Shown here: piece by piece, positions 21,508-45,610 of the stretch
How the letters are laid out: each line of letters starts with the position of its first letter
Position numbering within the stretch: position 1 is the first letter of the stretch
Position numbers and translations under genes: made by a program
Notes under the pieces: model-generated
Seen by the model: the letters and a program-made list of their open reading frames with translations, nothing else
Databases searched by the model: none
Told to the model about the DNA's origin: nothing
Source: an uncultured Candidatus Saccharibacteria bacterium
Lineage (GTDB): Bacteria > Patescibacteriota > Minisyncoccia > UBA6257 > JAUSGH01
Length of the DNA: 46,294 nt
Direction of reading: 5' to 3'
NCBI GenBank assembly: GCA_964372325.1
Contig: CAYJQG010000003.1
Coordinates: 1 to 46,294 of the forward strand

Positions 21508-21543
21508 GAGTAGCGATGTGATAGATGGCTTGTTGCAAAGGGC

Positions 21544-22928: not shown

Positions 22929-22956
22929 GACTTTACAACGATAACCGTGCTATACT
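22927..22956 (+). promoter_or_regulatory. Possible sigma70 promoter
   Basis: TTGACT, an 18-nt spacer, then TATACT. No convincing ORF lies downstream before the MITE at 23110. Confidence 0.35.
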
Positions 22957-23109
22957 GTTATTAAAGGTGTTATCGTATAAATTGCGATTAACCACTTGTC
23001 AATAAAAATGGTCCTTGTATCAAGGGCTGTTTTTATTTACTATGAGCATGCGTGGATTCGGGCTCGTAGTTTATGCAGTAAAATAACACCTTTGACAAGT
23101 GGTGAAGCG

Positions 23110-23444: not shown

Positions 23445-23577
23445 ACAACGAAGGCTTGCATTTTTAAATAGGGTATGCTATACTAGTTAACGATTGGAGA
23501 ATTTACTACTGGTGATGTAACTGGCACTTGGTGCGGTCGTCGCTAGTGGAGAGTTCTTTGATAGAAACGAGGTTCCC

Positions 23578-24444: not shown

Positions 24445-24488
24445 CTTAACGACTAAGGATGACAATATAAAAATTTTCGAACAACTAC

Positions 24489-24508
24489 GCCCCCAGCCGG
24501 GGGCTTTT
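24489..24508 (+). terminator. Intrinsic terminator
   Basis: GCCCCC-AGCC-GGGGGC, followed by TTTT. Confidence 0.75.
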
Positions 24509-24540
24509 CAGTTTACGTAAGGATTTAACTACTAGTACAG

Positions 24541-24818
24541 AAATCCCAAATCCCAAGCATCAAATAACAAATAAATTCTAATTTTTTAAATTCGAATTTA
24601 TATATTGAATATTATTTGGGATTTGATTATTGTCTCTGAATTACGAAACTCCAGCTTCAATGCTTTTTCGCTCATTTCGGCTGCGAATGCGCAAGAAAAA
24701 ACTCGAGAGATACTCGTGTATATCCCTCGTTTTTTCTTGCGGCGTCTCGCTCGAAATGATTCGAAAAATCATTTGAAGGGAGTTTCGTAACTCAGAGTTA
24801 TTAAGATTTGGTGCTTAT
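24541..24818. repeat. CCCAAAT-hairpin element, copy B, split by a nested 164-nt MITE
   Basis: The left arm is at 24541-24580. The right arm is split into 24611-24628 and 24805-24818 by an insert with ends CTCTGAATTACGAAACTCC (24634-24652) and GGAGTTTCGTAACTCAGAG (24779-24797). Confidence 0.8.
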
Positions 24819-24849
24819 GTATTGAGTGGCTTGTTGCTATACACTCGTT

Positions 24850-28053: not shown

Positions 28054-28074
28054 ATGTGGTACAGTAGGCTTTAT

Positions 28075-29127: not shown

Positions 29128-29170
29128 CAAGAAACTAGAAACTGGATACTAGAAACTAATAACTATCTCC

Positions 29171-29533
29171 ATGATCAAAAATTTTTATGATCTCAGGGTG
29201 TGGCAAGACGCACATCAACTTACGCTTGATGTGTATCGTATTACTAAAAAATATCCAAGCGAAGAACGCTTTGGCTTAACTGCACAAATGCGCAGCTCGG
29301 CTGCTTCGACACCCGCGAATATTGCAGAGGGCTTTGGAAGATTTCATTACAAAGATAAGGTCCGGTTTTATTTACAAGCACGTGCTTCTGCGGTCGAACT
29401 GCAGAACCATTTAATCCTCTCGCAAGATCTTGAATATATCTCTAAAGAATCCGCGCGTATATTATTCAGCAAGGCAAGTCTGGTGATAAAAGAATTAAAT
29501 GGGCTTATCCGTAAAACCGGTCCTAGTGCCTAG
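29171..29533 (+). CDS. Four-helix-bundle protein (23S rRNA intervening-sequence protein / Avd-like family)
   Basis: FYDLRVWQDAHQLTLDVYRITKKYPSEERFGLTAQMRSSAASTPANIAEGFGR is the characteristic N-terminal pattern of this family. Confidence 0.8.
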   Translation: MIKNFYDLRVWQDAHQLTLDVYRITKKYPSEERFGLTAQMRSSAASTPANIAEGFGRFHYKDKVRFYLQARASAVELQNHLILSQDLEYISKESARILFSKASLVIKELNGLIRKTGPSA

Positions 29534-30427: not shown

Positions 30428-30443
30428 TGGTCAACCTACGACC

Positions 30444-30674
30444 GTGGGTCCCGCATCGCGGTGCGGGATGCTCAATTTTCCAACCACTCGCTTCGCTCGT
30501 ATTTGTGGATCCCAGCCCGAGAGCTGGGATCTATTAAGTCTAAAACTACGTGGATCCTGGATTGTTATCCAGGACGCTCAATTTTCCAACCACTCGCTTC
30601 GCTCGTGGGGAAAAACCATGGGTCCCGCATCGCGGTGCGGGACGCTCAATTTTCCAACCACTCGCTTCGCTCGT
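30444..30674. repeat. Array of hairpin modules sharing a 31-nt tail (three copies)
   Basis: GCTCAATTTTCCAACCACTCGCTTCGCTCGT occurs at 30470-30500, 30576-30606 and 30644-30674. Each copy is preceded by a GC-rich hairpin (TCCCGCA..TGCGGGA twice, TCCTGGA..TCCAGGA once). An extra hairpin lies at 30508-30531. Confidence 0.85.
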
Positions 30675-30734
30675 GGGGAAAATTGGCGCTTATCCCCACC
30701 CAATTTACACCGAGCGATGCTATAATAAAGTTGT

Positions 30735-31577
30735 ATGCCCACCTTAACGCAACTTATGGGCAGGCGTTTTTTAATACTTGGGCTTAGCACGGTCCTTGGC
30801 GGTTTTTTGTTACTCCTTGGTATTGGGCAATTGGGGTTACTGCCCACGGCTCCGGCACCAACAACGCTTTCTTTAAGCACTTCTCCTCTCGCCTCCGTTT
30901 CTCTTGCTGCATCTTCACAAAATCTTTCGCCATCTCTTCCGTCGCTTGTCGCCCCAGAAGACAATGTCACCGTGCAACTTGCCGCAAAAATTGCAAAAGA
31001 GATTTTAGCACGTAACCCCGATGGGCCACGCACTACTCAAGATGGCGAGAAAATTGTGCTACCCAATGTCGATGGATTCATTGAGCAATACCTCAAAGAT
31101 GGGGCAGTAAATTTTGACACAACTATATTTTATCCAGAAGTTTCACCTAGCAAGCTCTATATCGCCGCCCCTACTGTCCCAGGCTCGATTGAAGAATTTA
31201 CCGCCATCGAGCAATATCAGAAAAGTTTTGACGAAATTTTTAACACTTGGCTACTCGCTCTTTCCGTTCCTCCGGCTACAGATGACTCGTCGCTCGGCAC
31301 GTTTTTTGACAACGCAATGTCCGTTCTTAATACCATGCTACAGCAGCTGTATGCTCTTATGACTCCTCAATCCCTCATACAAAAACATCAACAACTGCTT
31401 CGCGCCCTTGAAGGGACGCGTATCGCCCTTATAAAGCTTCGTTCTTATGAAGCTGACCCATTGCAGGCTATATTAACATTGAACTTACTCACGGAAATTA
31501 ATGGCGAGTTTTTCGTAGTAAAAAATTCTATTGCCAACCTCATCAGCGCGCCGTCTCTCGAGACACTAAAGCCATGA
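30735..31577 (+). CDS. Membrane-anchored protein, first gene of the T4SS-like locus
   Basis: 280 aa, with an N-terminal TM helix (FLILGLSTVLGGFLLLLGIGQLGLL) and then a Ser/Pro-rich linker. Its stop overlaps the next ATG (ATGA). Confidence 0.7.
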   Translation: MPTLTQLMGRRFLILGLSTVLGGFLLLLGIGQLGLLPTAPAPTTLSLSTSPLASVSLAASSQNLSPSLPSLVAPEDNVTVQLAAKIAKEILARNPDGPRTTQDGEKIVLPNVDGFIEQYLKDGAVNFDTTIFYPEVSPSKLYIAAPTVPGSIEEFTAIEQYQKSFDEIFNTWLLALSVPPATDDSSLGTFFDNAMSVLNTMLQQLYALMTPQSLIQKHQQLLRALEGTRIALIKLRSYEADPLQAILTLNLLTEINGEFFVVKNSIANLISAPSLETLKP

Positions 31578-33202
31578 TCAATATAAAAAAAATCTTTACT
31601 TCTTTCATTCTCTGTACCATAGTTCTTCAGAGTGTTATTCTCGTACCGCAAACGCACGCACAATCTGATGGCCTCGGGGTCATTGGTCGAGCAACGACAC
31701 GCACCCAACGTATTACTGCCGCTACGATCAAACTCAGCATTGCCACTTTGAGCCATGGTATATCTACTAAAAATTTAATTGCAGCAGCAAAGGCCGCGGG
31801 GTTCGACCTCGCCAACCCATTGAAATTTTTATTGAATATCACCGTAAGCTCTGAAGGGGCAGCGAATTTTTTAAATTTTCTTCAAGTTTATCAGCATTGG
31901 CTTCATACGAAAAATGCTCTTGCAACAGCAACTAAGGAACTCGCCGATGCACAACGTGAGGTCTGGGATGATATCCTCGATGTGCTCGAAAAAATTCTTC
32001 TTGAAACGCTTAAAAAACGCATCCTCGACACGATGGTTGACCAAATCGTTAACTGGATTCAAGGCGGGGGAGACCCTAAATTCATTACTAACTGGCAAGG
32101 GTTTTTTGGCGACATCGCACAAGGAGTTGCCGGTGAATTTGTAAAAGAACTTGGTTTGGGTTTTTTGTGTTCGCCATTTAGCCTTAAGGTACGGCTTGCA
32201 TTGCTGCCAGTCAATCGTTTTGCTGGTAAAAACTTTTCATGTACGCTCGACCAAATTACTGGAAATATTCAAAATTTTTATAAAGACTTCCGCAATGGAA
32301 GTTGGCTTGCACTCGACACTTCTTGGCAACCACAAAATAATTTCTATGGGGCACTCTGGCTTGGGTGGGATGCGCAACAAAATCTTATTGCAAATTCCCT
32401 GTTTGCGAAAGCCAATGAAGCAGTTTCTTCTCCGGGAGGCTTCCTTTCACAAAAAGTTTGCGTAGATGCGCTTGGTAAAAAAATTGACGCACGTCGGGAG
32501 GGGCGAAGGGGCGTGAAGTGCAGTATTGTCACCCCAGGTTCATTACTTGGAGACGTGGTTGCAAAAGCCGCGGGTGTAGATATCGATTCACTCATCACCG
32601 CCAAAGAACTTAGTGCATATATCGCAGCCATTGCCAATGCCTTAATTAATCGCGTTATCGTTGGAGCCGCAGGGCTCGCTGGGGCTAATGTATCGCCTGA
32701 TACCAAGGGACCGCAGGTTTACGCCGATATCGCCAACGAAGTTGACCAAACAAATAGGGGGTCAAAAGATTTCACTATCAGTAAAATTCCTGGTGCCCCA
32801 CAAAGCTCTGCGGTTATCGATTCTATAGAGGGGCGCCTCCGTGACGCGCTGGATACCCTGCAAGAGGCCAATAGTATTCTCATACAGTCACTCCAGCTTA
32901 AAAAGAACTATCTTGTACTTTGCCCGCAGTCTAACGCCGCTCTTCAAGCTTTTACTAATGATGTACACCAACAACAAACCGTGATTGATGGCAAAGTAAA
33001 AAAATTCGGTAGCGATCTGCAAGCGCTCTCTAAACTTTCTCCAACTGATGTGGGGAAATTTGTGTTCGCGCAAACCTATTCTTCACCTGAATATCTTGCC
33101 GAGCTTGATGAGCCAGAATCGCTAAAGACGGGGGCGCAAAAATCTCAAGAACAAATCCAAAAACACCTTACGGATTTTGGTGAACGTCGTTCATGCAAAT
33201 GA
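31574..33202 (+). CDS. Secreted protein of unknown function (542 aa)
   Basis: Signal peptide MINIKKIFTSFILCTIVLQSVILVPQTHAQ. Translationally coupled to the upstream gene. No motif recognised. Confidence 0.75.
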   Translation: MINIKKIFTSFILCTIVLQSVILVPQTHAQSDGLGVIGRATTRTQRITAATIKLSIATLSHGISTKNLIAAAKAAGFDLANPLKFLLNITVSSEGAANFLNFLQVYQHWLHTKNALATATKELADAQREVWDDILDVLEKILLETLKKRILDTMVDQIVNWIQGGGDPKFITNWQGFFGDIAQGVAGEFVKELGLGFLCSPFSLKVRLALLPVNRFAGKNFSCTLDQITGNIQNFYKDFRNGSWLALDTSWQPQNNFYGALWLGWDAQQNLIANSLFAKANEAVSSPGGFLSQKVCVDALGKKIDARREGRRGVKCSIVTPGSLLGDVVAKAAGVDIDSLITAKELSAYIAAIANALINRVIVGAAGLAGANVSPDTKGPQVYADIANEVDQTNRGSKDFTISKIPGAPQSSAVIDSIEGRLRDALDTLQEANSILIQSLQLKKNYLVLCPQSNAALQAFTNDVHQQQTVIDGKVKKFGSDLQALSKLSPTDVGKFVFAQTYSSPEYLAELDEPESLKTGAQKSQEQIQKHLTDFGERRSCK

Positions 33203-33222
33203 TTATCTTGATTATTTAACCT

Positions 33223-35103
33223 ATGAAACTACTCCGGCGATTTTCTCAATTCATTCTTACCTCAACCGCACTCCTCGTGCCGCAGTTTGTATTTGCCCAA
33301 GCGGTCGAGAAGATTTTTGATATCAGCTCCGCCTTTGTCGTCGGGATCCAAGCCGCCGCTTCTACCGTTATCATGATGTCGATCTACGGCGTCATGTTTG
33401 TCATCGGAAAAATTGGGAGTTTGTGCCTGATCGTTATTGGTTACATCTTGGACTTCGGTCTCCAATTGAATGCCACGGTTATTGACCAAGCCATTGTGAA
33501 ATCGGGCTGGGTTATTGTCCGGGATGTTTCCAATATCGGATTCTTGTTTGCCATTCTTGTTATCGCTTTTACTATTGTCACGCGCACACAAACGCATGGC
33601 ACGCGCGAACTGTTTGGTAAGCTCCTTATCGCGGCAGTACTCATTAATTTCAGTCTCGTGATTTCTGGCTTCTTTATTGATGCTGGTGGTGTTTTTTCCT
33701 CATTCTTTAAGGACAGAATTACTACTGGCGGAACGACAGTTGCAGAAAATATGCTAGCCGCGACCTCCTACGACAAGATCCTATCGCAGTTTGGTAGTGG
33801 AAGTTTTGAAGCGTTTAAGGCCGGTGACCCGGCAGCGTCTGGAGACCAGGCTCTTAAAAATGGCCTTCTATTCGGTCCAGCAGTAATCCAATATATTGCC
33901 AACCTTTTCTTTGTCGCACTCTTTACATTTTTCCTTGTGGCGGGCATGACTGCTGTTACAGTAATGGTATATGTCCGCTTTCTTTGGCTTATTGGCCTGC
34001 TTATTCTCGCGCCTGCAGCCTGGCTTTCGTTTGCAACCCCACAACTATCAAAATATTTTAGTGAGTGGTGGGATTATTTCTTGCGTTGGACGTTTTTCTT
34101 ACCCGCATCAATGTTTTTCTTATATCTCTCTGTTCTAGCAGGAACAACTCTCGGAGACACCCTCGACTTTACGTTTAAACTTTCCGGTGCGTATGCTACT
34201 GGATCTTATACGGCATCTGCGATCGGAGGACTTTTACCCTCGTTCGCTCAAATGATTGTTGTCATCGGACTTGCCATGATGGGACTTTTAGCCGGTGAAA
34301 AACTCGGTGGGTCAGCAACAAAAATGGCGTTCACTGCTGGCAATTGGGCACGCGGCAAGGTAACTGGCGGGGGGCCCAGCGGAATATCTCGCGGCGTTTT
34401 AGGTGCATATCTTCGCGGAGGAGTAGATAAGAATGGGGCCTCGCGTGGAGAGCGACTCCACGCACGAATTCAAACTGGCGGAGCGTTCTACGCTCCACTG
34501 CGCGGACTAGCTGAGAACATAGAAAAAATGAGCAAGCCCTCAAGTAAGACCACTGAAATACAGGCCCGTCTCGGCAGTATAAAAAATGACGGCTTGTTAA
34601 CTTCCATGGCCAATAAAGGTGGGTACGACGAGGAGACTGCTATCGCGCTTACAAAAGAACTTGCCAAGCGTGGTAAGCTTAAAACAGTCGATTCCGATGG
34701 GATCCTCAATCTTAAACGTGCTTCCAAGGGGAATGAAGCTGTCGAAAAAGAAATAGCCAAGGTCCGTCCCGACATGGTTGGTGATAGATCGAAGATAAAA
34801 GTTACTGAGGCCATGAACAAGCTTGCCGCTACCCAAAAAGGGCTTTTGCCTCCTGCTGTGTTTAGAGTTAAAAATGCTGATGGCACGTTTAATGAACCGT
34901 CGGTATTTGCCCTATTTGCGCTGAGCAACTCAGATCTTCTTACCCTTATAAAAAATGCCAGAAAAACCGATGAAATTAAAGAAGTGTGCAAGACAATCAA
35001 AAAAGCGATCGCAGATCTTAGAGGCTCAATGCATGACAAGTCCACTGAGTATACACGGTTAAATACATACGTGACGGCGAGTCCTGGTTTTTCAGCGTTA
35101 TAA
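33223..35103 (+). CDS. Polytopic membrane protein, VirB6/TrbL/PrgH-like by topology and position
   Basis: 626 aa, with a signal-like N-terminus, at least seven hydrophobic spans in the first ~370 aa and a hydrophilic C-terminal third. It lies two genes upstream of the PrgI-like gene. The assignment has no motif-level proof. Confidence 0.55.
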   Translation: MKLLRRFSQFILTSTALLVPQFVFAQAVEKIFDISSAFVVGIQAAASTVIMMSIYGVMFVIGKIGSLCLIVIGYILDFGLQLNATVIDQAIVKSGWVIVRDVSNIGFLFAILVIAFTIVTRTQTHGTRELFGKLLIAAVLINFSLVISGFFIDAGGVFSSFFKDRITTGGTTVAENMLAATSYDKILSQFGSGSFEAFKAGDPAASGDQALKNGLLFGPAVIQYIANLFFVALFTFFLVAGMTAVTVMVYVRFLWLIGLLILAPAAWLSFATPQLSKYFSEWWDYFLRWTFFLPASMFFLYLSVLAGTTLGDTLDFTFKLSGAYATGSYTASAIGGLLPSFAQMIVVIGLAMMGLLAGEKLGGSATKMAFTAGNWARGKVTGGGPSGISRGVLGAYLRGGVDKNGASRGERLHARIQTGGAFYAPLRGLAENIEKMSKPSSKTTEIQARLGSIKNDGLLTSMANKGGYDEETAIALTKELAKRGKLKTVDSDGILNLKRASKGNEAVEKEIAKVRPDMVGDRSKIKVTEAMNKLAATQKGLLPPAVFRVKNADGTFNEPSVFALFALSNSDLLTLIKNARKTDEIKEVCKTIKKAIADLRGSMHDKSTEYTRLNTYVTASPGFSAL

Positions 35104-35116
35104 TATCCTATTTTCT

Positions 35117-36343
35117 ATGGCTACTACCAACCTTTGGGAACTCCTTATTAAATTACCCGAAACTATTTACGACCAGTTGGTTTCTTTGGATGCCACTAAT
35201 AATATTATGGCGCTCAACCAACGATTTAATATTCCCCTCGCAAAGAGATCAGTAATTTCGTTACTTATTATTCGTCTCGTTACTAAAGAAATCGCTACAA
35301 CAGACTTTATTAGTCACCTCTCCTTAGAGCTTGACATTAGCGATTCAGCGGCAAGCATCCTGGCAAAAGAAATCGAAGATTCTGTGCTGCATCCTATAGA
35401 AAAAGAACTACAAGTAACCGGGGTTGATATGTCGATGTTCCATCGTATCAGTGGCCCCACGAGGCTACCCAACCTAGAACCTATAAACAAGCCCGCGGAT
35501 TCGGTTCAGTCTCCCCCAAAAGCTCCGGCGGGCATTGGGCACGAAACACGAACGGATTCGACTCTTCTTCGCCCCTCAACTACGCTCGGGGCTTCCGCCT
35601 CTGCTGAAGCTATGGCAGATAAATCAGGCGCGCAAGCCAACTCGCTCGATGTGGCTCAAAATAAACCATCGCAGATAGAACAAATGGTACCGACAGAAAC
35701 ACTGCCGTCAACCCCACTACCGACCGATAATTCTGCCCCGACAATACTCCGCGAAGAAAAAGCTGCAGTTACGCCAATGGTGCAAACGCCACGACCAACA
35801 TTTTCTATTAAAATTCCGTTGCAATGGAAAAAATATACTGCGCCCGCGCCGGTTTCAGCTACGATTGAGACGGCGGTATCGGAGGTCGGGGGTAGCACGT
35901 CGCAAGCCGCAGATCGCGAGTCGCTGGTTGTGGGTAGCGCGTCGAGGGTTGCGGAGCCTATGCCCAGCAAAGCCGCTAGCGAGTTGAGCCAAACCATCGA
36001 GGGACCCCCTCGCAATGACGACGGTATAGACAAAAAAAATGCTGGGTCGCCAAAAATTCCGATCCCAATTCCTATTCCAAAACCAAAACCCAGCGTTGCT
36101 GTGCCAATGACGACCTTAGACATTACGCCTCCAGTGCGAGCGACAAATAACGGCAAAGCGCAAAGCTTACCTACCAATAAACAAGACGCAAAGCGCGAAG
36201 CGGACGACCGAAAAATATCCATTCCTACACCACCGCCAAAAATTATGGAATTTAGTGCTTCGCCCACCACGCTACCGCAAGTGAAGAGGGTGGTGCATTA
36301 TAGTAGATACCATACGTTGGTTGATCAATCGACTGGGGTATAG
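35117..36343 (+). CDS. Hypothetical Pro/Ser/Thr-rich protein (408 aa)
   Basis: Long ORF with ATG at 35117. Structured N-terminal ~110 aa, then a low-complexity region. No TM helix seen. Confidence 0.65.
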   Translation: MATTNLWELLIKLPETIYDQLVSLDATNNIMALNQRFNIPLAKRSVISLLIIRLVTKEIATTDFISHLSLELDISDSAASILAKEIEDSVLHPIEKELQVTGVDMSMFHRISGPTRLPNLEPINKPADSVQSPPKAPAGIGHETRTDSTLLRPSTTLGASASAEAMADKSGAQANSLDVAQNKPSQIEQMVPTETLPSTPLPTDNSAPTILREEKAAVTPMVQTPRPTFSIKIPLQWKKYTAPAPVSATIETAVSEVGGSTSQAADRESLVVGSASRVAEPMPSKAASELSQTIEGPPRNDDGIDKKNAGSPKIPIPIPIPKPKPSVAVPMTTLDITPPVRATNNGKAQSLPTNKQDAKREADDRKISIPTPPPKIMEFSASPTTLPQVKRVVHYSRYHTLVDQSTGV

Positions 36344-36470
36344 GGTTTAGAAACTAGGCACTAGACACTAGTGATTAGCCACTAGACACTAGCCACTAGA
36401 AACTGGACACTAGAAACTGGACACTAGAAACTGGAAACTGGGAACTAGTAAATAGCCACTAGACACTAAT
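36344..36470. repeat. CTAG-rich tandem repeat tract
   Basis: Iterations of (A/C)CACTAGA(A/C)ACTGG, including CACTAGAAACTGGA three times around 36394-36440. Related tracts lie at 29128-29165, 29520-29545, 43974-44000 and 45427-45460. Confidence 0.8.
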
Positions 36471-36472
36471 GG

Positions 36473-36557
36473 AAAAATCCCAAATTTCAAGCACCAAATA
36501 ACAAATAAATTCCATTAAATATTATTTGAGATTTGGTATTTGAGATTTGGTGCTTAT
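36473..36557. repeat. CCCAAAT-hairpin element, copy C (short loop)
   Basis: AAAAATCCCAAATTTCAAGCACCAAATAACAAATAAATTCC paired with TTATTTGAGATTTGGTATTTGAGATTTGGTGCTTAT. It ends 12 nt before ATG 36570. Confidence 0.85.
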
Positions 36558-36569
36558 GTTTAATTTTTT

Positions 36570-37049
36570 ATGCAGTACCAAGTACCACAATTTATTGAGG
36601 TTGAAGACACCATTGTTGGGCCGTTAACGATTAAGCAGTTTATTTATCTTGCAACGTCGGGTTTTATTTGTGTTATTTTGTATTTTATTCTCCAAGGAGC
36701 TGTATTTTTTATTGTCGCCGCACTTGTCGGTGGCAGTGGGCTGACACTCGCATTCGCAAAGTATAACGGGCGCCCCGTTACTACGGTGCTTGTTGCCGCC
36801 TTTCGTTATTTTTTAAACCCTCGTATCTATATATGGAAGCGCAAAGAAGAGGTTGCAGCGCTCCGCGCAGCTGAAGCAGAGAAACATGAGTCCGCCGTTC
36901 AACAGTTGTGGCTCCGCATTACCGCGGGAAAAGATATCGTGCCCCAGCGCCCGAAAGAGCGTTCGGCATTTGGGGTCCCGCAAAAATACCAAGTGATTGA
37001 GCATGTGTCGGGGGCGAGAGAGAACGTGAAGAGGATTGATTATAGGTAA
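36570..37049 (+). CDS. PrgI-family (VirB3-like) T4SS membrane protein
   Basis: MQYQVPQFIEVEDTIVGPLTIKQFIYL followed by two TM helices is the hallmark PrgI-family N-terminus. It lies immediately upstream of the VirB4-like genes, as in Gram-positive conjugation operons. Confidence 0.75.
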   Translation: MQYQVPQFIEVEDTIVGPLTIKQFIYLATSGFICVILYFILQGAVFFIVAALVGGSGLTLAFAKYNGRPVTTVLVAAFRYFLNPRIYIWKRKEEVAALRAAEAEKHESAVQQLWLRITAGKDIVPQRPKERSAFGVPQKYQVIEHVSGARENVKRIDYR

Positions 37050-37324
37050 AATGCACTAATGAGCGCCCGCTTTGTCGCCCTTCGTCGGAGTACCACAGAG
37101 AGTACACCTCCTCAGGGCTTCGCGCGGGCATCTCATTATTGCATTTTACTCGCGCCATGAAGTACGTTACCGGGCCGATTTCGTTGTCGTGCCTCCTCGC
37201 AGTACCACCGCGGGTACAGCTTCGTCGGCACTCCTAGAACTCGGCCCGGTAACGTACTTCTACCACTTACCGAGAGCTCTAAGGGCTTCGCGCGGGCATC
37301 TCATTATTGCATTTTACTCGCGCC
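37050..37324. mobile_element. Composite GC-rich MITE-like insert
   Basis: A 43-nt direct repeat, AGGGCTTCGCGCGGGCATCTCATTATTGCATTTTACTCGCGCC, occurs at 37114-37156 and 37282-37324. A perfect 20-bp inverted repeat is GAAGTACGTTACCGGGCCGA (37159-37178) with 37241-37260. It shares modules with 6127-6148 and 15100-15128. Confidence 0.8.
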
Positions 37325-37386
37325 GTCATTATTATTCTTTTTCCTTTTTCCTTTTTCATTCTTCGTTTTTAATTTATACTACATAC

Positions 37387-38040
37387 ATGCCTCCCATAGC
37401 TCGGCCAACGCAAGAATTTGTCGCAATTGACCGCATCCAAGACGGTGTGGTGATTTTAAAAGACGGAGCTCTCCGGCAAATTTTACTTGTTTCGGGCACC
37501 AACTTCGACCTAAAGTCCGAAGACGAAAAACAGCTTATCATCGCATCGTACCAAAACTTTTTGAACTCGCTCAAATTTTCTTTACAAATGATCGTGCACT
37601 CTCGCCGCGTGAATGTCGAACGCTATTTAGCCCGCCTTGGAGAACGCTCGCTTACCGAAACCAATGAGCTCTTGCGTAACCAAATCGCTGAATACAGCCA
37701 ATTTATTCGTTCGTTTGTCGGAGAAAACCCCATTATGACTAAAACTTTTTTCGCCGTTGTTCCATTTGATCCCGTTTCTATTCCCGGTGCCGCGGCCATA
37801 ACGCGCACTGGTCTTTTTGGGTTTTTCAAAAAGTCCGCACCCGAAGCCGCTACAGCCGACGCCACACGTACCCTACACGACCACATTGAACAGCTCTCGC
37901 AACGTACCACCCACATTATTTCAGGGCTTCAAGAAATCGGGCTCCGTGCGGTGCCGTTGCAAGACCAAGAAATTACTGAGCTACTCTACAACCTCTACAA
38001 CCCAGAGCCAGTAGAGAAAACGAGCGTTGCTGAGAAATAA
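37387..38040 (+). CDS. VirB4 N-terminal-domain-like protein (217 aa, no NTPase motifs)
   Basis: ATG 37387. The ORF-track extension to 37072 reads through the MITE. The pattern TQEFVAIDRIQDGVVILKDGALRQILLVSGTNFDLKSEDEKQ..YQNFLNSL resembles the N-terminal region of conjugative VirB4/TraC-type ATPases. Assigned by eye only. Confidence 0.5.
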   Translation: MPPIARPTQEFVAIDRIQDGVVILKDGALRQILLVSGTNFDLKSEDEKQLIIASYQNFLNSLKFSLQMIVHSRRVNVERYLARLGERSLTETNELLRNQIAEYSQFIRSFVGENPIMTKTFFAVVPFDPVSIPGAAAITRTGLFGFFKKSAPEAATADATRTLHDHIEQLSQRTTHIISGLQEIGLRAVPLQDQEITELLYNLYNPEPVEKTSVAEK

Positions 38041-38047
38041 AAACTTT

Positions 38048-39757
38048 ATGCCAGAAAATAATAACATCGAAAATTTTATTGCACCACCAAGTGTTGAGGT
38101 GAATGCCAATTATTTAAAAATCGGCAATGAATTTGCGAAGACGCTCTTCATTTACACCTACCCACGCTACCTTTCGACGGGTTGGTTTTCACCAATCATT
38201 AACATGCCGAGCCTCTTAGACATTGCTATTTTTGTGCACCCCGTTGACCCAGCGCTTGCCTTGAAAAATTTGCGTAAAAAGTCTGCGCAAATTGAGTCGC
38301 AAATCATGTCGGTTGAAGAAAAGGGGCTGGTTAGAAACCCCCTCCTTGAAACCGCCTACCAAGACGTCGAAACATTGCGCGATTCACTCCAGCAGTCACG
38401 AGAAAATCTTTTTAATGTTGCCGTGTATATTACGATATTCGCTGACTCTCTCCCGAACCTTGGGAAACTTGAGTCAGAGATCACGAGTTTTCTCGAAGGG
38501 CGCATTGTGTATGCGAAGCCTGCCGCATTCCAACAAGTTGAAGGGTGGACCGCAACGCTCCCCTTAGGGCTCGACAAGTTGCTTATTACCTCGCCCATGG
38601 ACACGGCGCCGATTTCTTCGTTCTTCCCATTTGTTTCTGCAAACCTCACCTCCGAAACCGGAATTTTGTATGGCGTGAACCCGGGCAATAACACCCTTAT
38701 CCTTTTCGACCGATTCTCACTCGAAAATGCGAACATGGTCATTTTTGCCAAGTCTGGTTCTGGTAAGTCGTACGCTACCAAACTCGAAGCGCTCCGCCTC
38801 TTAATGCTTGGGACTGATGTGATTATTATCGACCCTGAAAATGAATATCAAAATTTGGCAAACACGGTCGGTGGAAGTTTTATTAAAATTTCACTCGCCT
38901 CCGAGCAACATATTAACCCATTTGACATCCCTATTATTCCCAAAGGCGAAGACCCGAGCGACATCTTAAAGTCCCATATTGCCGGGCTCGCAGGCATGAT
39001 GAAAATTATGTTGGGGAAAATTTCTCCCGAAGAAGATGCGCTCCTCGACCGGGCGCTGCTCGAAGCGTATGCATCGCGCGACATTGCACCCGGCAAAGAA
39101 TTTGCAAATGCCATCCCGCCCCTTTTAGAAGATATCGAAACTGTGCTCCGCGGTATTGAGGGTGGGGGGCCGCTTGCCGAACGATTGTTTAAATTTACTA
39201 AGGGCAGCTACGCCGGTTTTCTCGACAAACCAACCAACGTCAGCGTACAGAACCGCCTCGTAGTTTTTTCGGTACGCGATCTTGAAGAAGAACTGCGCCC
39301 TATCGCGGTTTACCTCGTCTTAAACTTTATTTGGAATATTATTCGGGCAGAGATTAAGCAACGTATTTTAATTGTCGATGAAGCCTGGTGGATGATGAAA
39401 AACCCCGACAGCGCCCAATTTTTGTTTAGCCTTGTGAAGCGCGCTCGCAAATATTACCTTGGTATAACCACCGTTACCCAAGACGTTGAAGATTTTTTGC
39501 TTTCGCCGTATGGCCGGCCTATTATCACCAACTCCTCGCTCCAACTTTTATTAAAACAAGCTCCTGCGATGATGGACATTGTTTCGAAAACTTTCGCACT
39601 TGCCGAGGGAGAAAAAACTTTGCTCACCGAAGTCCCCGTAGGGCAGGGTATTTTCATCGCTGGCCTTCAACACGCACCAATCCAAATTGTTGCGTCGTAT
39701 CTCGAAGACCAGATTGTGACAACAAAGCCGCAACAGATATTGGAGGAACAACAATAG
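38048..39757 (+). CDS. virB4: VirB4/TrbE/PrgJ-like T4SS ATPase
   Basis: Walker A FAKSGSGKSYATK, Walker B ILIVDEAWWMM, the YLKIGNEFAKTLFIYTYPRYL N-domain and TQDVEDF. The start is ATG 38048, or TTG 38027 overlapping the upstream stop. Confidence 0.85.
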   Translation: MPENNNIENFIAPPSVEVNANYLKIGNEFAKTLFIYTYPRYLSTGWFSPIINMPSLLDIAIFVHPVDPALALKNLRKKSAQIESQIMSVEEKGLVRNPLLETAYQDVETLRDSLQQSRENLFNVAVYITIFADSLPNLGKLESEITSFLEGRIVYAKPAAFQQVEGWTATLPLGLDKLLITSPMDTAPISSFFPFVSANLTSETGILYGVNPGNNTLILFDRFSLENANMVIFAKSGSGKSYATKLEALRLLMLGTDVIIIDPENEYQNLANTVGGSFIKISLASEQHINPFDIPIIPKGEDPSDILKSHIAGLAGMMKIMLGKISPEEDALLDRALLEAYASRDIAPGKEFANAIPPLLEDIETVLRGIEGGGPLAERLFKFTKGSYAGFLDKPTNVSVQNRLVVFSVRDLEEELRPIAVYLVLNFIWNIIRAEIKQRILIVDEAWWMMKNPDSAQFLFSLVKRARKYYLGITTVTQDVEDFLLSPYGRPIITNSSLQLLLKQAPAMMDIVSKTFALAEGEKTLLTEVPVGQGIFIAGLQHAPIQIVASYLEDQIVTTKPQQILEEQQ

Positions 39758-39769
39758 CAGGGTTTTAAG

Positions 39770-40025
39770 AAAATCCCAAGCACTAAATAACAAATAAATT
39801 CTAATTTTTTTATTCGAATCTATATATTAGACCCACTGCTTAATTATCTTTCTACTGCAATTCTAAAATCATGGCTACAACTTGTCAAAAAAAGTTCACA
39901 AGATACACTGTATATTGCTCACTTTTTTTGACTGCGTTTCGCTCACGATTTTAGAATTTCGTAACGAAAATAATTAAGCAGCGGGTCTATTGAATATTAT
40001 TTGGGATTTGGGATTTGGTGCTTAT
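39770..40025. repeat. CCCAAAT-hairpin element, copy D, with a nested 160-nt insert
   Basis: The arms are at 39770-39810 and 39993-40025. The nested element has ends AGACCCACTGCTTAATTAT (39829-39847) and ATAATTAAGCAGCGGGTCT (39970-39988), plus an inner inverted repeat. Confidence 0.8.
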
Positions 40026-40061
40026 GTTTTTAGTGGCTATTAGCTATACCCTTAATTTTTT

Positions 40062-40541
40062 ATGCCTCCTCTAACTAATCTATTAAACAACGCCCCACAA
40101 AAACCACCCATAAAGGTATCTACTGCCGAGATGGTACTCGTACTTACCATCTCGGGCATGATCGACGCCCTTGACGCCGCTCTTAGTTTTATCCCAGGGC
40201 TTGGCTGGATCTCCAACTTCTTCATCAACCTTATGGCAACCGCCTTGATTCAGCTGTACCTCATGCTCCGTGGCTTAAAATGGTATTATAGTATTGTAGG
40301 CAACCTAATAGAATTTATACCGGTTTTGAATATATTGCCGCTTCGTACGGTTGGCCTTGCGCTAACCTTTGCGCTTACCCAATCAACATACTCCACCGCT
40401 GCCGCAAGAATTATTCGCTCGCGCTCGGGAGGTGCAATGTTGAGAAAGGTTACTTCTCGCGTCAATCCCGAAGAGGCGGCTGCAGCCTTACAATATATAT
40501 CTTCGACCACCGCAGCGAAGACACCACCGGAGGACGGTTAG
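40062..40541 (+). CDS. Small polytopic membrane protein (159 aa)
   Basis: ATG 40062. Three to four hydrophobic helices and a basic, Ala-rich C-terminus. No motif recognised. Confidence 0.65.
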   Translation: MPPLTNLLNNAPQKPPIKVSTAEMVLVLTISGMIDALDAALSFIPGLGWISNFFINLMATALIQLYLMLRGLKWYYSIVGNLIEFIPVLNILPLRTVGLALTFALTQSTYSTAAARIIRSRSGGAMLRKVTSRVNPEEAAAALQYISSTTAAKTPPEDG

Positions 40542-40661
40542 CCCTAGTGCGTAATTCCTAATATCTAATATCTAATTTCTAATTTCTAATAAAATGACTA
40601 AGCAATAAATGATAAAAAAAATCTAAACTTTATTCATTAGATATTAGAAATTTTCTCATCA

Positions 40662-41345
40662 ATGTTTCTCGGGTTTGTAAAAATTCTCTCGCTGGTCTAT
40701 GCACTCTTCGCCACACAGGCTGCTTTTGCGCAAGCTGCTCCTTTTGAATTTGTGACCTCTTGGCGAGCACATAGCTATGCGCCACCAATGTACGTGGGGA
40801 AAATTCTCCCCACCGCAAATACGAGAGTAACCGCGAGCTTCACACTGCTTGAAAAACATGCCTCAGTCGACACGTCAAAAACTATGGTACGTTGGTTTTT
40901 AAACGACCAATTTCTTACATCTGGGATAGGCGCACAATCGGTAACGTTTACGACCGACGACCTTACCTTGTCTGGGGCGCTTACACTTAAAGTTTTTATC
41001 CCTCGCTTCCGTGGGAAAGAAGACTTAATTAGGTTTATCGATATTCCCATCGTAAGGCCGGAGTTGGTTATCCGCGCGCCGTATATTGGCGGTAATATTA
41101 ACGCTGGGAACCATACATTCGAAGCATTGCCGTATTTTTGGAACATCAATTCCACGAGTGATTTACTTATTCGGTGGGTGGCGGGGAACGACCAAAGCCC
41201 TGAGGGCAGAGGCCAAGGGGCAATTACCCTTACCATTCCGCAGCCAAGGAGACCCACGCCGCTCACTATTTCACTCTCTGCAAAACATGCAACCAACGAA
41301 TTTGAAGTTGGGAGCGCGAGCGTGGAACTTTTAATTGCGGAATAA
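40662..41345 (+). CDS. Secreted protein (227 aa)
   Basis: Signal peptide MFLGFVKILSLVYALFATQAAFAQA, followed by beta-rich composition. Confidence 0.7.
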   Translation: MFLGFVKILSLVYALFATQAAFAQAAPFEFVTSWRAHSYAPPMYVGKILPTANTRVTASFTLLEKHASVDTSKTMVRWFLNDQFLTSGIGAQSVTFTTDDLTLSGALTLKVFIPRFRGKEDLIRFIDIPIVRPELVIRAPYIGGNINAGNHTFEALPYFWNINSTSDLLIRWVAGNDQSPEGRGQGAITLTIPQPRRPTPLTISLSAKHATNEFEVGSASVELLIAE

Positions 41346-41356
41346 TATATAAAGAC

Positions 41357-41457
41357 TAAGCACTAAATCCCAAGCATCAAATAACAAATAAATCTTAATT
41401 GAGTGGTTTCCATGATTAGAATTTAAGAGTTGAATATTATTTGGGATTTGGCGCTTA
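41357..41457. repeat. CCCAAAT-hairpin element, copy E
   Basis: TAAGCACTAAATCCCAAGCATCAAATAACAAATAAATC paired with TTATTTGGGATTTGGCGCTTA. Confidence 0.8.
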
Positions 41458-41497
41458 ACCTTATATCCTTATAAATAATGAGAGTTATACTATAATT

Positions 41498-42748
41498 ATG
41501 TCTTCTTTGTTTCTATTATCTACGCCTGTCGCCAATGCTGCTCCCGCTGCTGCTCCTGCAGCCAATGCTGCACCAACGGAGGCTCCCTCTACCCGCAAAG
41601 TTCTTGATTGTGGGCCACAACCTGGCGGCGAATATAAACTTTGCGTTACGCTCCCTGGCCAGCCCGGTGAGGGAGTTGTTACTGGGCCGATACAATACCT
41701 ATCGGTCGTTTACAACAGCGCGCTCACACTAATCGCGATAGCGGTGGTTGGGATTATTATGTATCGCGGTATTTTGTATATCTTGGCACGCGGCAACCCC
41801 GCAGAACAAACCGATGCGCGCGACGCCATCACCAAAGCAGTGCTCGGGCTTGTGCTCGGCCTTTCGGCGGTTTTAATTCTCCGCACTATCAACCCGGCTC
41901 TTATAGACAATGTGCGCGAACTCCCGGTGCCACAAATCCCCAAACAAGAAAACTCTGTTCTAAATGCACTGATAGCCGAACAAAATAGAAGCTCTCTGGC
42001 TTTAGAGAATTTAAAAAAAGAAATGACTAGGCTCGACCGGATTGTCCAGGATACCCCTAAAGAGCTTCAAGAAAAGGCAAGAAATGCTGCTCATGGTAGG
42101 ACATTTGATGATTTATTGGCTCAGGAAAAGCAACAAGTAGAAAAATCGTTTAAGCTTATCACTGGAAGCACCGCAGAGCAACGAACTAGCGCCGCATTGA
42201 ATCAAATGAAACCATTGTGGCAGCAGTATTTTACCGAACTTGAAAAGACCAATCACTTACTATCAACTCTTTCCAGCTTAAAAGAGGCGGGGGGGAAGAG
42301 CCGTGAAGCAAATCAATTTGAATTTTTAATAACGTATGACCTTAATACTAATAAAGGGGCTGAGCTTGTTCAACAGATACCAGACGACGAACTTAAAACA
42401 TTATTCCGCAAGTCATCAAGCGTTCCGTACCCCAATGTCGATGCTAATTCTTTCTGGCTTGGCACAAAGGCTGCCTTTATAAATCTTTTTAATCTCCCGG
42501 CAGTTGGGACGACAGACAAAGATCTTTCCCCTATACTGGGGCAGTGGATGTCTGAACAACAGGCGGAAAATTTATTTATGGCGTATTTTAGAGAAGGGGC
42601 TGAAGCCACTCAAAACCTCACAAACGTAGCTCAAATACAAACAACAGCGAAAAACCAGATGGACCTTCTACTTCAATATAAGCCAAACCTCCGCAAAAAC
42701 ATAGCGGTGATTCAAAGGCTCAATGCAAGCGATTCTTGGAGGAAGTAA
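41498..42748 (+). CDS. T4SS-pilin-like (TrbC/VirB2-type hairpin) protein with a long helical C-terminal extension
   Basis: It has a signal peptide, a Cys pair (CGPQPGGEYKLC), and two hydrophobic helices (LTLIAIAVVGIIMY and AVLGLVLGLSAVLIL) separated by the charged loop RGNPAEQTDARD. The C-terminal ~270 aa are heptad-like. Confidence 0.55.
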   Translation: MSSLFLLSTPVANAAPAAAPAANAAPTEAPSTRKVLDCGPQPGGEYKLCVTLPGQPGEGVVTGPIQYLSVVYNSALTLIAIAVVGIIMYRGILYILARGNPAEQTDARDAITKAVLGLVLGLSAVLILRTINPALIDNVRELPVPQIPKQENSVLNALIAEQNRSSLALENLKKEMTRLDRIVQDTPKELQEKARNAAHGRTFDDLLAQEKQQVEKSFKLITGSTAEQRTSAALNQMKPLWQQYFTELEKTNHLLSTLSSLKEAGGKSREANQFEFLITYDLNTNKGAELVQQIPDDELKTLFRKSSSVPYPNVDANSFWLGTKAAFINLFNLPAVGTTDKDLSPILGQWMSEQQAENLFMAYFREGAEATQNLTNVAQIQTTAKNQMDLLLQYKPNLRKNIAVIQRLNASDSWRK

Positions 42749-42776
42749 CCTTGCCTTATAAAACATACAATCGATT

Positions 42777-43973
42777 ATGCGCTTAACTAAAATTTTCCTT
42801 GTTATAGTCACTGCTCTCTCTCTGGTCTCTCTAGGCTATTTTATCTACGTCTCGTTTTTTAAGCCCGCGCCGACACCCACGACACAAGCCCCTTCGATTA
42901 CTAAACAACTTAAAGCAGTTGGTACCCCAAAAAAGAAAAACCTTGTTGTACTAACAAAGCAATCTGCGTCTGCGTATTGGACGGCCACTACGACAAATAC
43001 GCTCTACTATGTAGCAAACGATGGGCGAGTGCTTAAAACTTTTGGCGACGGCAGAGAAGAAGAGGTGAGCAGCCAAACATTACCAAACTTTTATGCAGCG
43101 ACCTCAAATGCATCGGGCGCTCTTGCGTTGGGCACGTTTAGCTACCCCATATCTCCCGTGTTTGCCATGTTTAGCACCGACACCAATGCCTGGGAACGCT
43201 TACCAGCAGGAACTATCGCAGCGGCATTTAGCCCCGACGGCAACGCGATCGCCTATATCCAAGATGGGCCGAGGCAGGGGTCGGGGAGTGATGCAACGGG
43301 ACTCTCTGGAACACTGTCGGTGCTCCAAGTTGGCGATAAAAAATCGAGGGTGATTGGCCGCATTACTATTGCCGACGGCACACTGCAGTGGCCGAAGTCC
43401 AACACGATGTACATCACCACCCGCCCGTCTTCAGAAATTTCGGCTGAGGTTTGGGAATTGCGTCTCTTGAATAATAAAAAAGGCGCGCCACTTGCGCCCA
43501 AAGACATTGCATCGTTTACCATACAACGTGTTGACGTCGATACCCGCACCACCATGGTACTCCACGGCAACATTGCTGACGTTGGTCTCCAGTTAATTAG
43601 TAAAGATGCGGCTACCTCGGAACTATACCTCACTAATAGAGCTGGGGTTACACTCACGAAGCTCCCATTCCTCACCCTGCCCTCGAAGTGCACATTCGAC
43701 GATGTAGTGCTATATTGTGCGTTGCCCAACACATTCCCCACACGCGCACGCTTGCCTGAAGACTACTCCCAAGAACGCTTTTACACCGCCGATGCACTTA
43801 TTTCGTACGACACCACAACTGGTTCGGCGCGAGTGCTCTATGAGAGTGGCGCTGTTATTGACGCCGAACAACTCACCGTACGCGATGGTGGTTCGACGTC
43901 GCTCACCACGAGCAAAGAACTATTATTTAGAAATCGATACGATGGAAAACTGTATTCGCTGCAGCTTGACTAG
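42777..43973 (+). CDS. Membrane-anchored beta-propeller-like protein
   Basis: N-terminal TM helix, then repeated Ser/Thr/Gly-rich beta segments including a TolB-like FSPDGNAIAY motif. Confidence 0.6.
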   Translation: MRLTKIFLVIVTALSLVSLGYFIYVSFFKPAPTPTTQAPSITKQLKAVGTPKKKNLVVLTKQSASAYWTATTTNTLYYVANDGRVLKTFGDGREEEVSSQTLPNFYAATSNASGALALGTFSYPISPVFAMFSTDTNAWERLPAGTIAAAFSPDGNAIAYIQDGPRQGSGSDATGLSGTLSVLQVGDKKSRVIGRITIADGTLQWPKSNTMYITTRPSSEISAEVWELRLLNNKKGAPLAPKDIASFTIQRVDVDTRTTMVLHGNIADVGLQLISKDAATSELYLTNRAGVTLTKLPFLTLPSKCTFDDVVLYCALPNTFPTRARLPEDYSQERFYTADALISYDTTTGSARVLYESGAVIDAEQLTVRDGGSTSLTTSKELLFRNRYDGKLYSLQLD

Positions 43974-44015
43974 GGTATAGGGTTTAGCCACTAGCCACTA
44001 AGCTGGCAAAACGAA

Positions 44016-44057: not shown

Positions 44058-44138
44058 TAGCCTATTAACACTAAAAAAATCCCTACAAATATTGTTGGGG
44101 AAATAGTTTACTCATCATCTTCAGTTTTATCGAACCAA

Positions 44139-44255
44139 CCAATACCAAAACCACGAACTTCAAGCATCAAATAACAAATAAATTCTAATTTTTTAAATTC
44201 GAATTTATGTTATTGAGTATTATTTGAAGTTTGGTATTTGAGATTTGGTGCTTAT
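44139..44255. repeat. CCCAAAT-hairpin element, copy F (diverged left arm)
   Basis: CCAATACCAAAACCACGAACTTCAAGCATCAAATAACAAATAAATTC paired with TTATTTGAAGTTTGGTATTTGAGATTTGGTGCTTAT. Confidence 0.75.
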
Positions 44256-44275
44256 GAGTGGTAAACCCTACACCC

Positions 44276-44736: not shown

Positions 44737-45426
44737 TTATTCCTGATCTACTAATTTTCTATTAATATGTAGCTGCTGTACCAGCGAGAACAGCGACGAC
44801 GTTAACCAATAAAGCCCAACTGCGGCAGGCAGTACCCCTAAAATCACTATTGTCAGAACCGGACCTATGTACATCATTTGTCGCCCTACTCGAGAGACAA
44901 CATCATTCTTATCGCCATTGGTTTTCGGTAGCGTCAATCGACTCTGATAATACTGCGCCGCTGCTGCTAAAACTACAATCACCATACTCTTTTCCTCTAA
45001 GTTAAGCAAGTACAAAAACGTCGGGTCGATGTGCGTGACACTTGGCAAGAACGCATAGAGCCCCGTCAACGCTTCTTCTTTTAACCCATACAAAAATACC
45101 TGGTACAACGCAATGAGTATTGGCAGCTGCAACACAATAAGCCCAATACTTGAAAATGGGTTGATGTTGTGGTGCCTATATAGCTCCATCATTGCTTTTG
45201 CTTGTTCTTCTTTATTGTCTTTATATCGCTCTTGTACACGTTTCATCTCAGGCTGCAGCCGCTGCATAATTGTTTGGTTCTTGAACATCTTATAAAAGAG
45301 TGGGTACAGCAATAAGCGCACCAAAACCGTTAACAATATAATTGCGAGGCCCAGGTCACGAAACGCGAGCAAATATAAACCAATCAAGAGGTTAAATAAG
45401 GGCTGGTATAGGAGGAGGTCAAACAT
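44737..45426 (-). CDS. yidC: Membrane protein insertase YidC (short form)
   Basis: Five-helix profile with LLYPLFYKMFKNQTIMQRLQPEMKRVQERYKDNKE and NPFSSIGLIVLQLPILIALY. Confidence 0.9.
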   Translation of the reverse strand: MFDLLLYQPLFNLLIGLYLLAFRDLGLAIILLTVLVRLLLYPLFYKMFKNQTIMQRLQPEMKRVQERYKDNKEEQAKAMMELYRHHNINPFSSIGLIVLQLPILIALYQVFLYGLKEEALTGLYAFLPSVTHIDPTFLYLLNLEEKSMVIVVLAAAAQYYQSRLTLPKTNGDKNDVVSRVGRQMMYIGPVLTIVILGVLPAAVGLYWLTSSLFSLVQQLHINRKLVDQE

Positions 45427-45610
45427 AATTAATTAGGGATTAGGCACTAGGCACTAGTAATTATTAAATTTCTAATATCTCATTGCTCGTACTTTATAGA
45501 ATTTCTAATTCCAAATATCTAATTTCTAATAAAACCTTGCAGTGTCTAATGTTTTTAAGAATCAACTATTAAACATTAGACATTTTAATATTTGCTTATT
45601 TTATTAAGAA

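Follow-up and report, generated by a model that had tools for sequence, protein, structure and literature searches.

An origin-proximal eleven-gene locus as a Paceibacteria example of the Patescibacteria type IV secretion system

The stretch of DNA analysed here is a 46,294-bp contig (CAYJQG010000003.1, the full length of which is referred to as the window) from an uncultured member of the Patescibacteria, and positions 30735-43973 of it hold eleven plus-strand open reading frames (ORFs), named g1 to g11, that together make up a genuine type IV secretion system (T4SS) locus, complete and typical for Paceibacteria, of the kind already known from Patescibacteria. The translocon parts g3, g5 and a split VirB4 (g6 and g7) are present with one VirB2-type pilin (g10), and they are accompanied by five extracytoplasmic or membrane partners (g1, g2, g8, g9 and g11) and one cytoplasmic partner (g4). 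This list of parts, their location in the envelope and their vertical inheritance are matters of observation. With a probability of roughly three in four, the VirB4 complex with its pilin and conserved partners would be a vertically inherited, origin-proximal T4SS of the Patescibacteria type, serving host contact plus uptake or two-step export in preference to conjugative DNA export. The initial annotation of this DNA had proposed host contact, DNA uptake or effector delivery rather than conjugation, and checks on the ATPase, on synteny and on conservation come out in favour of that proposal. The eleven products, with the evidence for each, are as follows.

30735-31577, plus strand: g1, bitopic membrane protein (transmembrane scan)
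31574-33202, plus strand: g2, secreted, mostly helical protein with a Sec signal (homologue family, AlphaFold2 model)
33223-35103, plus strand: g3, putative divergent VirB6/TrbL-like polytopic membrane protein (Pfam matches of orthologues, transmembrane scan)
35117-36343, plus strand: g4, cytoplasmic protein (no transmembrane segment, conservation profile)
36570-37049, plus strand: g5, PrgI/VirB3-like membrane protein (PF12666)
37387-38040, plus strand: g6, TrsD/TraD-like protein, VirB4 N-terminal domain as a separate ORF (NF041427)
38048-39757, plus strand: g7, VirB4 ATPase domain (NF045971, PDB 4ag5, Walker motifs)
40062-40541, plus strand: g8, small polytopic membrane protein (alignment of 60 orthologues)
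40662-41345, plus strand: g9, secreted, weakly immunoglobulin (Ig)-like protein (signal peptide, profile against PDB)
41498-42748, plus strand: g10, VirB2/TrbC-type T4SS pilin, pilin domain at residues ~61-140 (PF18895)
42777-43973, plus strand: g11, TolB/PD40-type beta-propeller with an N-terminal transmembrane anchor at residues 1-28 (family profile against PDB)

The locus has a coding density of about 91% and is arranged in tight blocks (g1-g4, g6-g7, g8-g9 and g10-g11), within which neighbouring ORFs overlap or lie 7-28 nucleotides (nt) apart, except for g8 and g9, which are separated by 120 nt. The other gaps measure 226 nt (g4-g5), 337 nt (g5-g6), 304 nt (g7-g8) and 152 nt (g9-g10), and the intergenic gaps of 120-337 nt are filled with repeat elements. 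The initial annotation had described eleven co-directional, tightly packed genes, almost every product of which carried a signal peptide or transmembrane (TM) segment. The genes are indeed all on the plus strand; the tight packing holds within g1-g4, g6-g7 and g10-g11 and fails at the five gaps of 120-337 nt, and a hydropathy scan found a signal peptide or TM segment in eight of the eleven products, with none in g4, g6 or g7.

Relatives of the locus were collected by a scan with g7 that took one genome per species and yielded 598 Patescibacteria, the best 80 loci of which were analysed, and the gene families were tracked in these by tblastn and by iterative hidden Markov model searches on ORFs. 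The core of the locus is collinear with PrgH (VirB6)-PrgI (VirB3)-PrgJ (VirB4), an order that had been recognised initially, and the families first proposed for g3, g5, g7 and g10 stand. The PrgI/VirB3-like protein g5 scores 37.9 bits against PF12666 PrgI, above the gathering score of 27. The ATPase g7 exceeds the cutoff of the CD1110 family model NF045971 (351 bits, cutoff 325) and matches PDB 4ag5, the solved VirB4 C-terminal domain, at 3.5e-41, and Walker A (GSGKS) and Walker B (ILIVDEA) motifs can be read from its translation. It groups with VirB4 (CD1110/MPF-FATA) and not with FtsK or HerA, a placement made from family scores and closest relatives (the best 80 all being Patescibacteria).

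The ORF directly upstream of g7, which had been regarded as unassignable, is corrected here to the TrsD-like N-terminal domain of the same VirB4. On its own g6 matches NF041427 TrsD at 1.7e-11 and, in several VirB4 models, the N-terminal 100-200 positions. Concatenation of g6 and g7 gives one continuous match to TIGR00929 VirB4_CagE over model positions 18-734 of 792, and the CD1110 score of the sequence joined in silico rises to 390 bits. The two domains are naturally fused in 6 of the 80 related loci (L002, L004, L010, L034, L037 and L039), and the fused orthologues of L004 and L034 behave like the joined g6 and g7 in TIGR00929 and CD1110 matching. The joint continuous match and the same behaviour of the natural fusions identify the ATPase, at the level of sequence, as a VirB4 split into g6 and g7, like the TrsD/TrsE pair of pGO1. 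An extended version of g6 with a TTG start (37072-38040) was rejected, because its 105 extra codons cross a repeat element and because the orthologues begin at the MPP... position.

The most divergent part of the core is g3, which has multiple TM segments at residues 34-363, conservation confined to residues ~60-400, and a variable C-terminal hydrophilic domain of ~230 amino acids (aa). The window protein has no direct Pfam match; among its syntenic orthologues, 5 of 45 match TrbL PF04610 (best 1.3e-7) and one matches TrbL_4, and g3 is accepted, by transitivity through these orthologues only, as a putative divergent VirB6. Comparison of the g3 profile with PDB sequences returned only coiled-coil noise from the C-terminal domain.

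The pilin g10 passes the threshold of PF18895 T4SS_pilin (29.8 bits, threshold 26.6), the same family is matched by 52 of 56 orthologues, and TrbC/VirB2 PF04956 is matched by 11 of the 56. Only residues ~61-140 are conserved, and the C-terminal tail of ~275 aa varies in length and sequence; the 270-aa extension initially described is thus a poorly conserved and lineage-variable tail. One g10 orthologue is fused to a Peptidase_M23 domain (2e-33), which points to a possible connection of the pilin with the LysM-M23 peptidase whose gene lies at 28009-29127, 1.6 kb upstream of the locus. The gene for this peptidase is found next to ksgA in only 8 related loci.

Relaxase, VirD4/TcpA-type type IV coupling protein (T4CP), VirB11 and lytic transglycosylase domains were all absent, by Pfam and NCBIfam models, from the scanned ORFs of at least 100 aa on the 46-kb contig, so that their initially reported absence extends across the whole contig. 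No VirB1-like cell-wall hydrolase (PrgK, TrsG or CD419) is present among g1-g11, and none of the eleven families gave a sequence match to a VirB8-like (NTF2-fold) scaffold (PrgL, PrgD or TcpC). An all-against-all hhalign comparison revealed no paralogy among the eleven families, including between g8 and the pilin (best probability 34% over 18 residues), and the candidacy of g8 as a second pilin was rejected on this result. Matches to promoter and terminator consensus sequences in the locus were no more numerous than in shuffled sequence.

Seven proteins had initially been left without a nameable family. Four of them (g1, g2, g4 and g8) remain conserved families without a label, g6 is the TrsD-like protein discussed above, and g9 and g11 now have a fold-level label only. 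The family of g2 is large, with 4,706 cluster representatives (50% identity) at E<=1e-10. The conserved core of g2 (residues ~140-360) contains the invariant cysteines C199, C223, C296 and C316, and its AlphaFold2 (AF2) model (pLDDT 72.9) is almost wholly helical, with one helix of 70 residues. Among 60 homologues, none is named beyond "hypothetical protein" and none has a Pfam match to the core, and the model has no Foldseek match at E<=0.001 in PDB or BFVD. A profile match of g2 to coronavirus spike S2/HR1 in PDB (E ~1e-4) was rejected as a low-posterior, gap-rich coiled-coil alignment, and Foldseek found neither spike nor any other fold at E<=0.001 in PDB or BFVD.

The propeller-like character first noted for g11 is confirmed, in that its family profile matches a TolB propeller in PDB at E=1.1e-12 and the protein is a TM-anchored TolB/PD40 propeller. 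The profile of g9 matches the cell-surface protein 7biz (2.4e-4) and Hoc (4.8e-3) in PDB; the protein reads as all-beta from its sequence and may be called weakly Ig-like, where it had previously been listed without a family. The bitopic protein g1 consists of a TM segment at residues ~10-39, a low-complexity linker and a helical ectodomain, with no Pfam match to the core domain in 36 orthologues (TSP3 repeats occur in six of them) and no PDB sequence match. It is the only bitopic VirB8 candidate of the locus; its AF2 model, built from a 9-sequence alignment, is all-helical and of low confidence (pLDDT 47), and a VirB8-like NTF2 fold appears somewhat unlikely. In g4, a conserved domain of ~100 aa at the N-terminus precedes a disordered tail rich in Pro, and 52 orthologues gave no Pfam match. 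Alignment of 60 orthologues of g8 reveals the conserved motifs D, KG and E-IP..LP, and these orthologues have no consistent Pfam match.

All eleven genes form one conserved, origin-proximal module. Upstream of the locus lie genes for an intein-bearing UvrD/PcrA, the LysM-M23 peptidase, a 23S-rRNA intervening sequence (IVS) four-helix protein and KsgA, and downstream, on the opposite strand, lie Jag, YidC and RnpA, which mark the origin region. The GC content of the locus (0.44-0.48) is the same as that of its flanks, no integrase is present on the contig, and no tRNA is found at the locus borders. The best 80 of the 598 loci are all from Patescibacteria metagenome-assembled genomes with VirB4 identities of 55-74%; the records that bear lineage names fall within Paceibacteria/Parcubacteria (Harrison-, Wolfe-, Jorgensen-, Kaiser- and Nomurabacteria), and some are labelled only "Saccharibacteria" or "bacterium".

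Related genomes repeat the whole set of eleven families with its order unchanged, far beyond what chance would give. Where 7.5 kb or more was available upstream of g7 (51 loci), g1 was present in 35, g2 in 33, g3 and g4 in 38 each and g5 in all 51; where 4.5 kb or more was available downstream of it (56 loci), g8 was present in 46, g9, g11 and YidC in 51 each and g10 in 55. Both flanks were available for 43 loci, 21 of which carry all eleven families (20 of these collinear) and 27 of which occupy the slot between ksgA and yidC, corresponding to at least 27 species-level genomes. The recurrence of all families with the core indicates that the unassigned genes are conserved together with it, a point on which the initial annotation had made its reading depend. 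That dozens of Paceibacteria species keep this slot and gene order indicates a vertically inherited chromosomal locus and not an integrative and conjugative element (ICE).

Loci of a Kaiserbacteria-like subclade (L056-L080) keep g5-g11 and yidC and are without g1-g4 upstream, from which it appears that g1-g4 and g5-g11 behave as two separable sub-modules. These loci encode, directly before g5, a protein of ~210 aa with six TM segments that may be a compact VirB6 substitute. The gene for the 23S-rRNA-IVS four-helix-bundle protein, at 29171-29533 in the window, varies in position among related loci (L005, L006, L012, L015, L018, L023, L058, L071 and L076), where it is found between g4 and g5, g5 and g6 or g6 and g7, or else downstream of g11, in the manner of a mobile gene with repeated insertions into the T4SS locus.

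The Patescibacteria T4SS was described by Quinonero-Coronel et al. 2025 in a survey of about 3,000 Patescibacteria genomes (PMC12102498), in which VirB4 forms a monophyletic clade derived from MPF-FATA, is accompanied by TrsD, PrgI/VirB3, VirB6 and VirB2-like pilins, is seldom linked to a relaxase or T4CP, and is often encoded near dnaA, rnpA, ksgA and rpmH; the supplementary table of that study gives the order VirB6-x-VirB3-TrsD-VirB4-x-VirB2. Transposon sequencing revealed that the Saccharibacteria T4SS, which has a Gram-positive-like composition with pilins and lacks both relaxase and coupling protein, is essential for epibiotic growth of S. epibionticum (Wang et al. 2023, PMC10633639), and a 2025 review treats the Patescibacteria system as a recognised branch of the T4SS superfamily. 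The locus shares with this system (SEML1_0006-0019; PMC12102498) an MPF-FATA-derived VirB4, an adjacent TrsD-like protein, PrgI/VirB3, VirB6 and a PF18895 pilin in a monoderm setting, the lack of a linked relaxase or T4CP, a position near rnpA, ksgA and the origin, and the tabulated gene order. It differs from the described system in having a single pilin with a long variable tail, instead of an array of 2-11 pilins, and in lacking genes for a peptidase or lysozyme immediately after virB4. The genes g1, g2, g4, g8, g9 and TolB-like g11 are Paceibacteria-specific and are not named in the text or the available supplements of PMC12102498, in which there is likewise no mention of a PD40/TolB component. 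The initial annotation had expected undescribed biology at the locus, an expectation that does not hold, as the same architecture and the same non-conjugative inference have been published (PMC12102498, PMC10633639, PMC12857230). What is added to the published system is small, namely labels at the level of fold for g9 and g11 and an estimate of how large the g2 family is.

With the MPF-FATA systems of Gram-positive elements (pCF10 Prg/Pcf, pGO1/pSK41 Trs and C. difficile CTn2) the locus shares the collinear PrgH-PrgI-PrgJ core, with pGO1 the TrsD+TrsE-like split of VirB4, and with CTn2 a VirB4 that passes the CD1110 family cutoff. Missing from the locus, in contrast to these systems, are a relaxase, a T4CP (PcfC), a hydrolase of the PrgK/TrsG type, any recognisable VirB8-like protein (PrgL/PrgD) and the adhesin PrgB; it possesses a VirB2-type pilin, which the Gram-positive systems are without, and it is chromosomally fixed whereas MPF-FATA systems are mobile. 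Helicobacter pylori ComB, Bordetella Ptl and crenarchaeal Ced resemble the locus in having a VirB4-type ATPase and no coupling protein or relaxase, and they show that T4CP-less systems can import DNA or export Sec-delivered proteins. ComB and Ptl have a diderm VirB7-10 core that is missing from the locus, and Ced ATPase models match the locus only far below cutoff.

In the mechanism proposed for the locus, VirB4 (g6 and g7) would dock on VirB3 (g5) and VirB6 (g3) and extract the pilin g10 from the membrane, and a VirB2-based filament or conduit would be assembled through the monoderm wall. The proteins g2, g9 and g11, and perhaps g1 and g8, may be wall-spanning, distal or tip-associated parts, with g2, g9 and g11 replacing the missing VirB8, VirB1 and adhesin functions, and the assembled structure would engage the host cell. 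The lack of a linked relaxase or coupling protein makes conjugative export very unlikely and tips the balance towards either two-step export that depends on Sec or host contact combined with uptake. On transport direction and cargo, both of these are live options.

Several points weigh against this reading. VirD4 homologues occur in most Patescibacteria genomes, away from virB4 (PMC12102498), and a T4CP could be encoded elsewhere in the present genome, of which the 46-kb contig was covered. The proposed function is drawn from homology and from a single experiment in another class (Saccharimonadia). The VirB6 of the window lacks a direct Pfam match, the locus yielded neither a VirB8-like nor a VirB1-like protein, and the 275-aa tail of g10 may be incompatible with canonical pilus packing. 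The roles proposed for g1, g2, g4, g8, g9 and g11 follow from location and synteny only.

A more far-reaching suggestion, offered tentatively, is that these last six proteins are a Paceibacteria-specific extracellular assembly with no counterpart in characterised T4SSs, which would replace VirB8, VirB1 and the adhesin as a host-contact or host-membrane-penetrating device; the standouts for such an assembly are g2, with its ~4,700 cluster representatives and no fold match, and the TM-anchored TolB-like g11.

Other explanations of a VirB4 system of this composition differ in what, if anything, would be transported. One is a machine for DNA or nucleotide import, like H. pylori ComB or crenarchaeal Ced, that would feed a nucleotide-auxotrophic organism. 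ComB is a T4CP-less, relaxase-less system with VirB4 only, and the locus is of the same kind. Matches to CedB (39.6 bits) and CedD (30 bits) exist but are far below the cutoffs of 700 and 600, and whereas ComB has VirB7-10 homologues, no VirB7-10 or CedA-like match was found in the locus, nor any DNA-binding or nuclease domain. A recG gene is present on the same contig, and import has been proposed by the authors of PMC12102498; against this, loss of comEC in S. epibionticum abolishes transformation and leaves the cells viable, which indicates that the essential role of the T4SS is not exerted via ComEC-dependent DNA uptake. Import as the purpose of the locus is, on balance, judged unlikely.

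Export of effector proteins that manipulate or lyse the host, possibly by a Ptl-like two-step route with Sec-exported substrates such as g2 and g9, is about equally doubtful. Protein export was suggested as possible by Wang et al. (PMC10633639), Bordetella Ptl and Brucella VirB work without a T4CP, and g2 and g9 are encoded in the locus and carry Sec signals. None of the eleven proteins has a toxin, enzyme or effector-like domain, however, and g2, g9 and g11 are fixed in position like structural parts and are not variable in the manner of effectors.

Slightly less likely still is a pilus-only adhesion organelle, in which a VirB2 filament for attachment would be built by VirB4, VirB3 and VirB6, without translocation of any substrate. 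Gram-negative pilus biogenesis needs VirB4 and not VirD4 (PMC13463995), the pilin is present in 55 of the 56 loci, and Ig-like and propeller proteins are typical of surface structures, but these bacteria already adhere via type IV pili (PMC10633639) and the long variable tail of the pilin would be unusual in a packed filament.

Finally, it is highly improbable that the locus is the transfer module of an ICE or of a decayed plasmid, with relaxase, T4CP and integrase lying outside it or lost (the initial annotation had named an ordinary ICE, with relaxase and coupling protein just outside the window, as a refuting case): although VirB4 scores best against CD1110, the conjugative-element family of CTn2, TrsD and PrgI are conjugation-system families and an IS200-like transposase lies at 121-933, this explanation is largely refuted by synteny, since the fixed slot between ksgA and jag-yidC-rnpA and the gene order recur in dozens of species at VirB4 identities of 55-74%, the composition equals that of the flanks, there is no integrase, relaxase, T4CP or tRNA boundary on the contig, and relaxases occur in only 103 of the ~3,000 surveyed genomes (PMC12102498).

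Copies of an A/U-rich palindromic repeat are found at 5459-5580, 24531-24822, 36465-36561, 39754-40029, 41348-41462 and 44138-44259, and a different element fills the g5-g6 spacer. Those in and beside the locus, none with an assigned strand, are listed below.

36465-36561, no strand: A/U-rich palindromic repeat between g4 and g5 (repeat families D2-D4; hairpin z -4.7)
37050-37386, no strand: 337-nt spacer between g5 and g6, with a 2x46-nt direct repeat and internal inverted repeats of 20 nt (D17, I8)
39754-40029, no strand: A/U-rich palindromic repeat between g7 and g8, with a nested insert of ~190 nt
41348-41462, no strand: A/U-rich palindromic repeat between g9 and g10 (hairpin z -4.4)
44138-44259, no strand: A/U-rich palindromic repeat at the convergent end of g11 and jag (hairpin z -3.6)

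Four of five folded A/U-rich copies form long hairpins (z -3.6 to -4.7), and the copy at 5455-5581 is not significant (z -1.5). Because the copies lie at operon-like boundaries in the locus and at two convergent gene ends, they may be terminators, and the copy at 44138-44259 may be a bidirectional one. The A/U-rich hairpin repeat is absent from all 80 related loci, and is thus genome-specific and not part of the conserved system. The g5-g6 spacer is ~20-60 nt long in orthologues, and 37050-37386 is probably an inserted repeat element.

Just upstream of g1 there is a 3x60-nt direct repeat (30441-30674) with a GC hairpin in each copy, and a possible extended -10 box, TGCTATAAT, is found at 30718-30726, 8 nt before the g1 ATG. 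Tandem arrays of 7-nt units (CTAGAAA, CTAGACA, CTGGACA) occur at 29122-29179, 36327-36489, 43968-44000 and 45413-45477, one of them directly after g4 and one directly after g11. A GC-rich palindrome of ~26 nt, CCTGCCTGCCGGCAGGCAGG, recurs at 6141, 6161, 15951, 20824, 25294, 27733, 29861, 30184 and 45964, and the motif is also present in the related loci L038 and L049. In the coding sequences of uvrD and ksgA, four copies are in frame and give LPAGRQG-like peptides, those in KsgA being insertions relative to orthologues; these in-frame copies recall Rickettsia palindromic elements.

Elsewhere on the contig, the UvrD/PcrA helicase gene (24850-28053, minus strand) carries an intein (Intein_splicing/Hint) at residues ~298-663. 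A stretch at ~21-24 kb (20114-24500) has a GC content of 0.57 versus 0.46 and overlapping ORFs on both strands, two of which were compared with Pfam and gave no match; direct repeats (20114-20301 and 23110-23463) bracket it. A tRNA-Leu and a 102-nt tRNA-like Rfam match (20810-20911, 37.7 bits) are adjacent, and the latter contains a copy of the GC palindrome and is not called by ARAGORN. The IS200-like Y1 transposase gene (121-933, minus strand) lies beside a perfect tandem repeat of 2x40 nt, which occupies 43-122 at the end of the contig.

A large part of the bacterial diversity not yet in culture consists of Patescibacteria, which live attached to other microorganisms, and no T4SS other than theirs is known to be indispensable for the growth of the bacterium that carries it. 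As a system the locus offers nothing new; it is a clean, complete Paceibacteria example, in which g1, g2, g4, g8, g9 and g11 are concrete targets for structural and genetic work.

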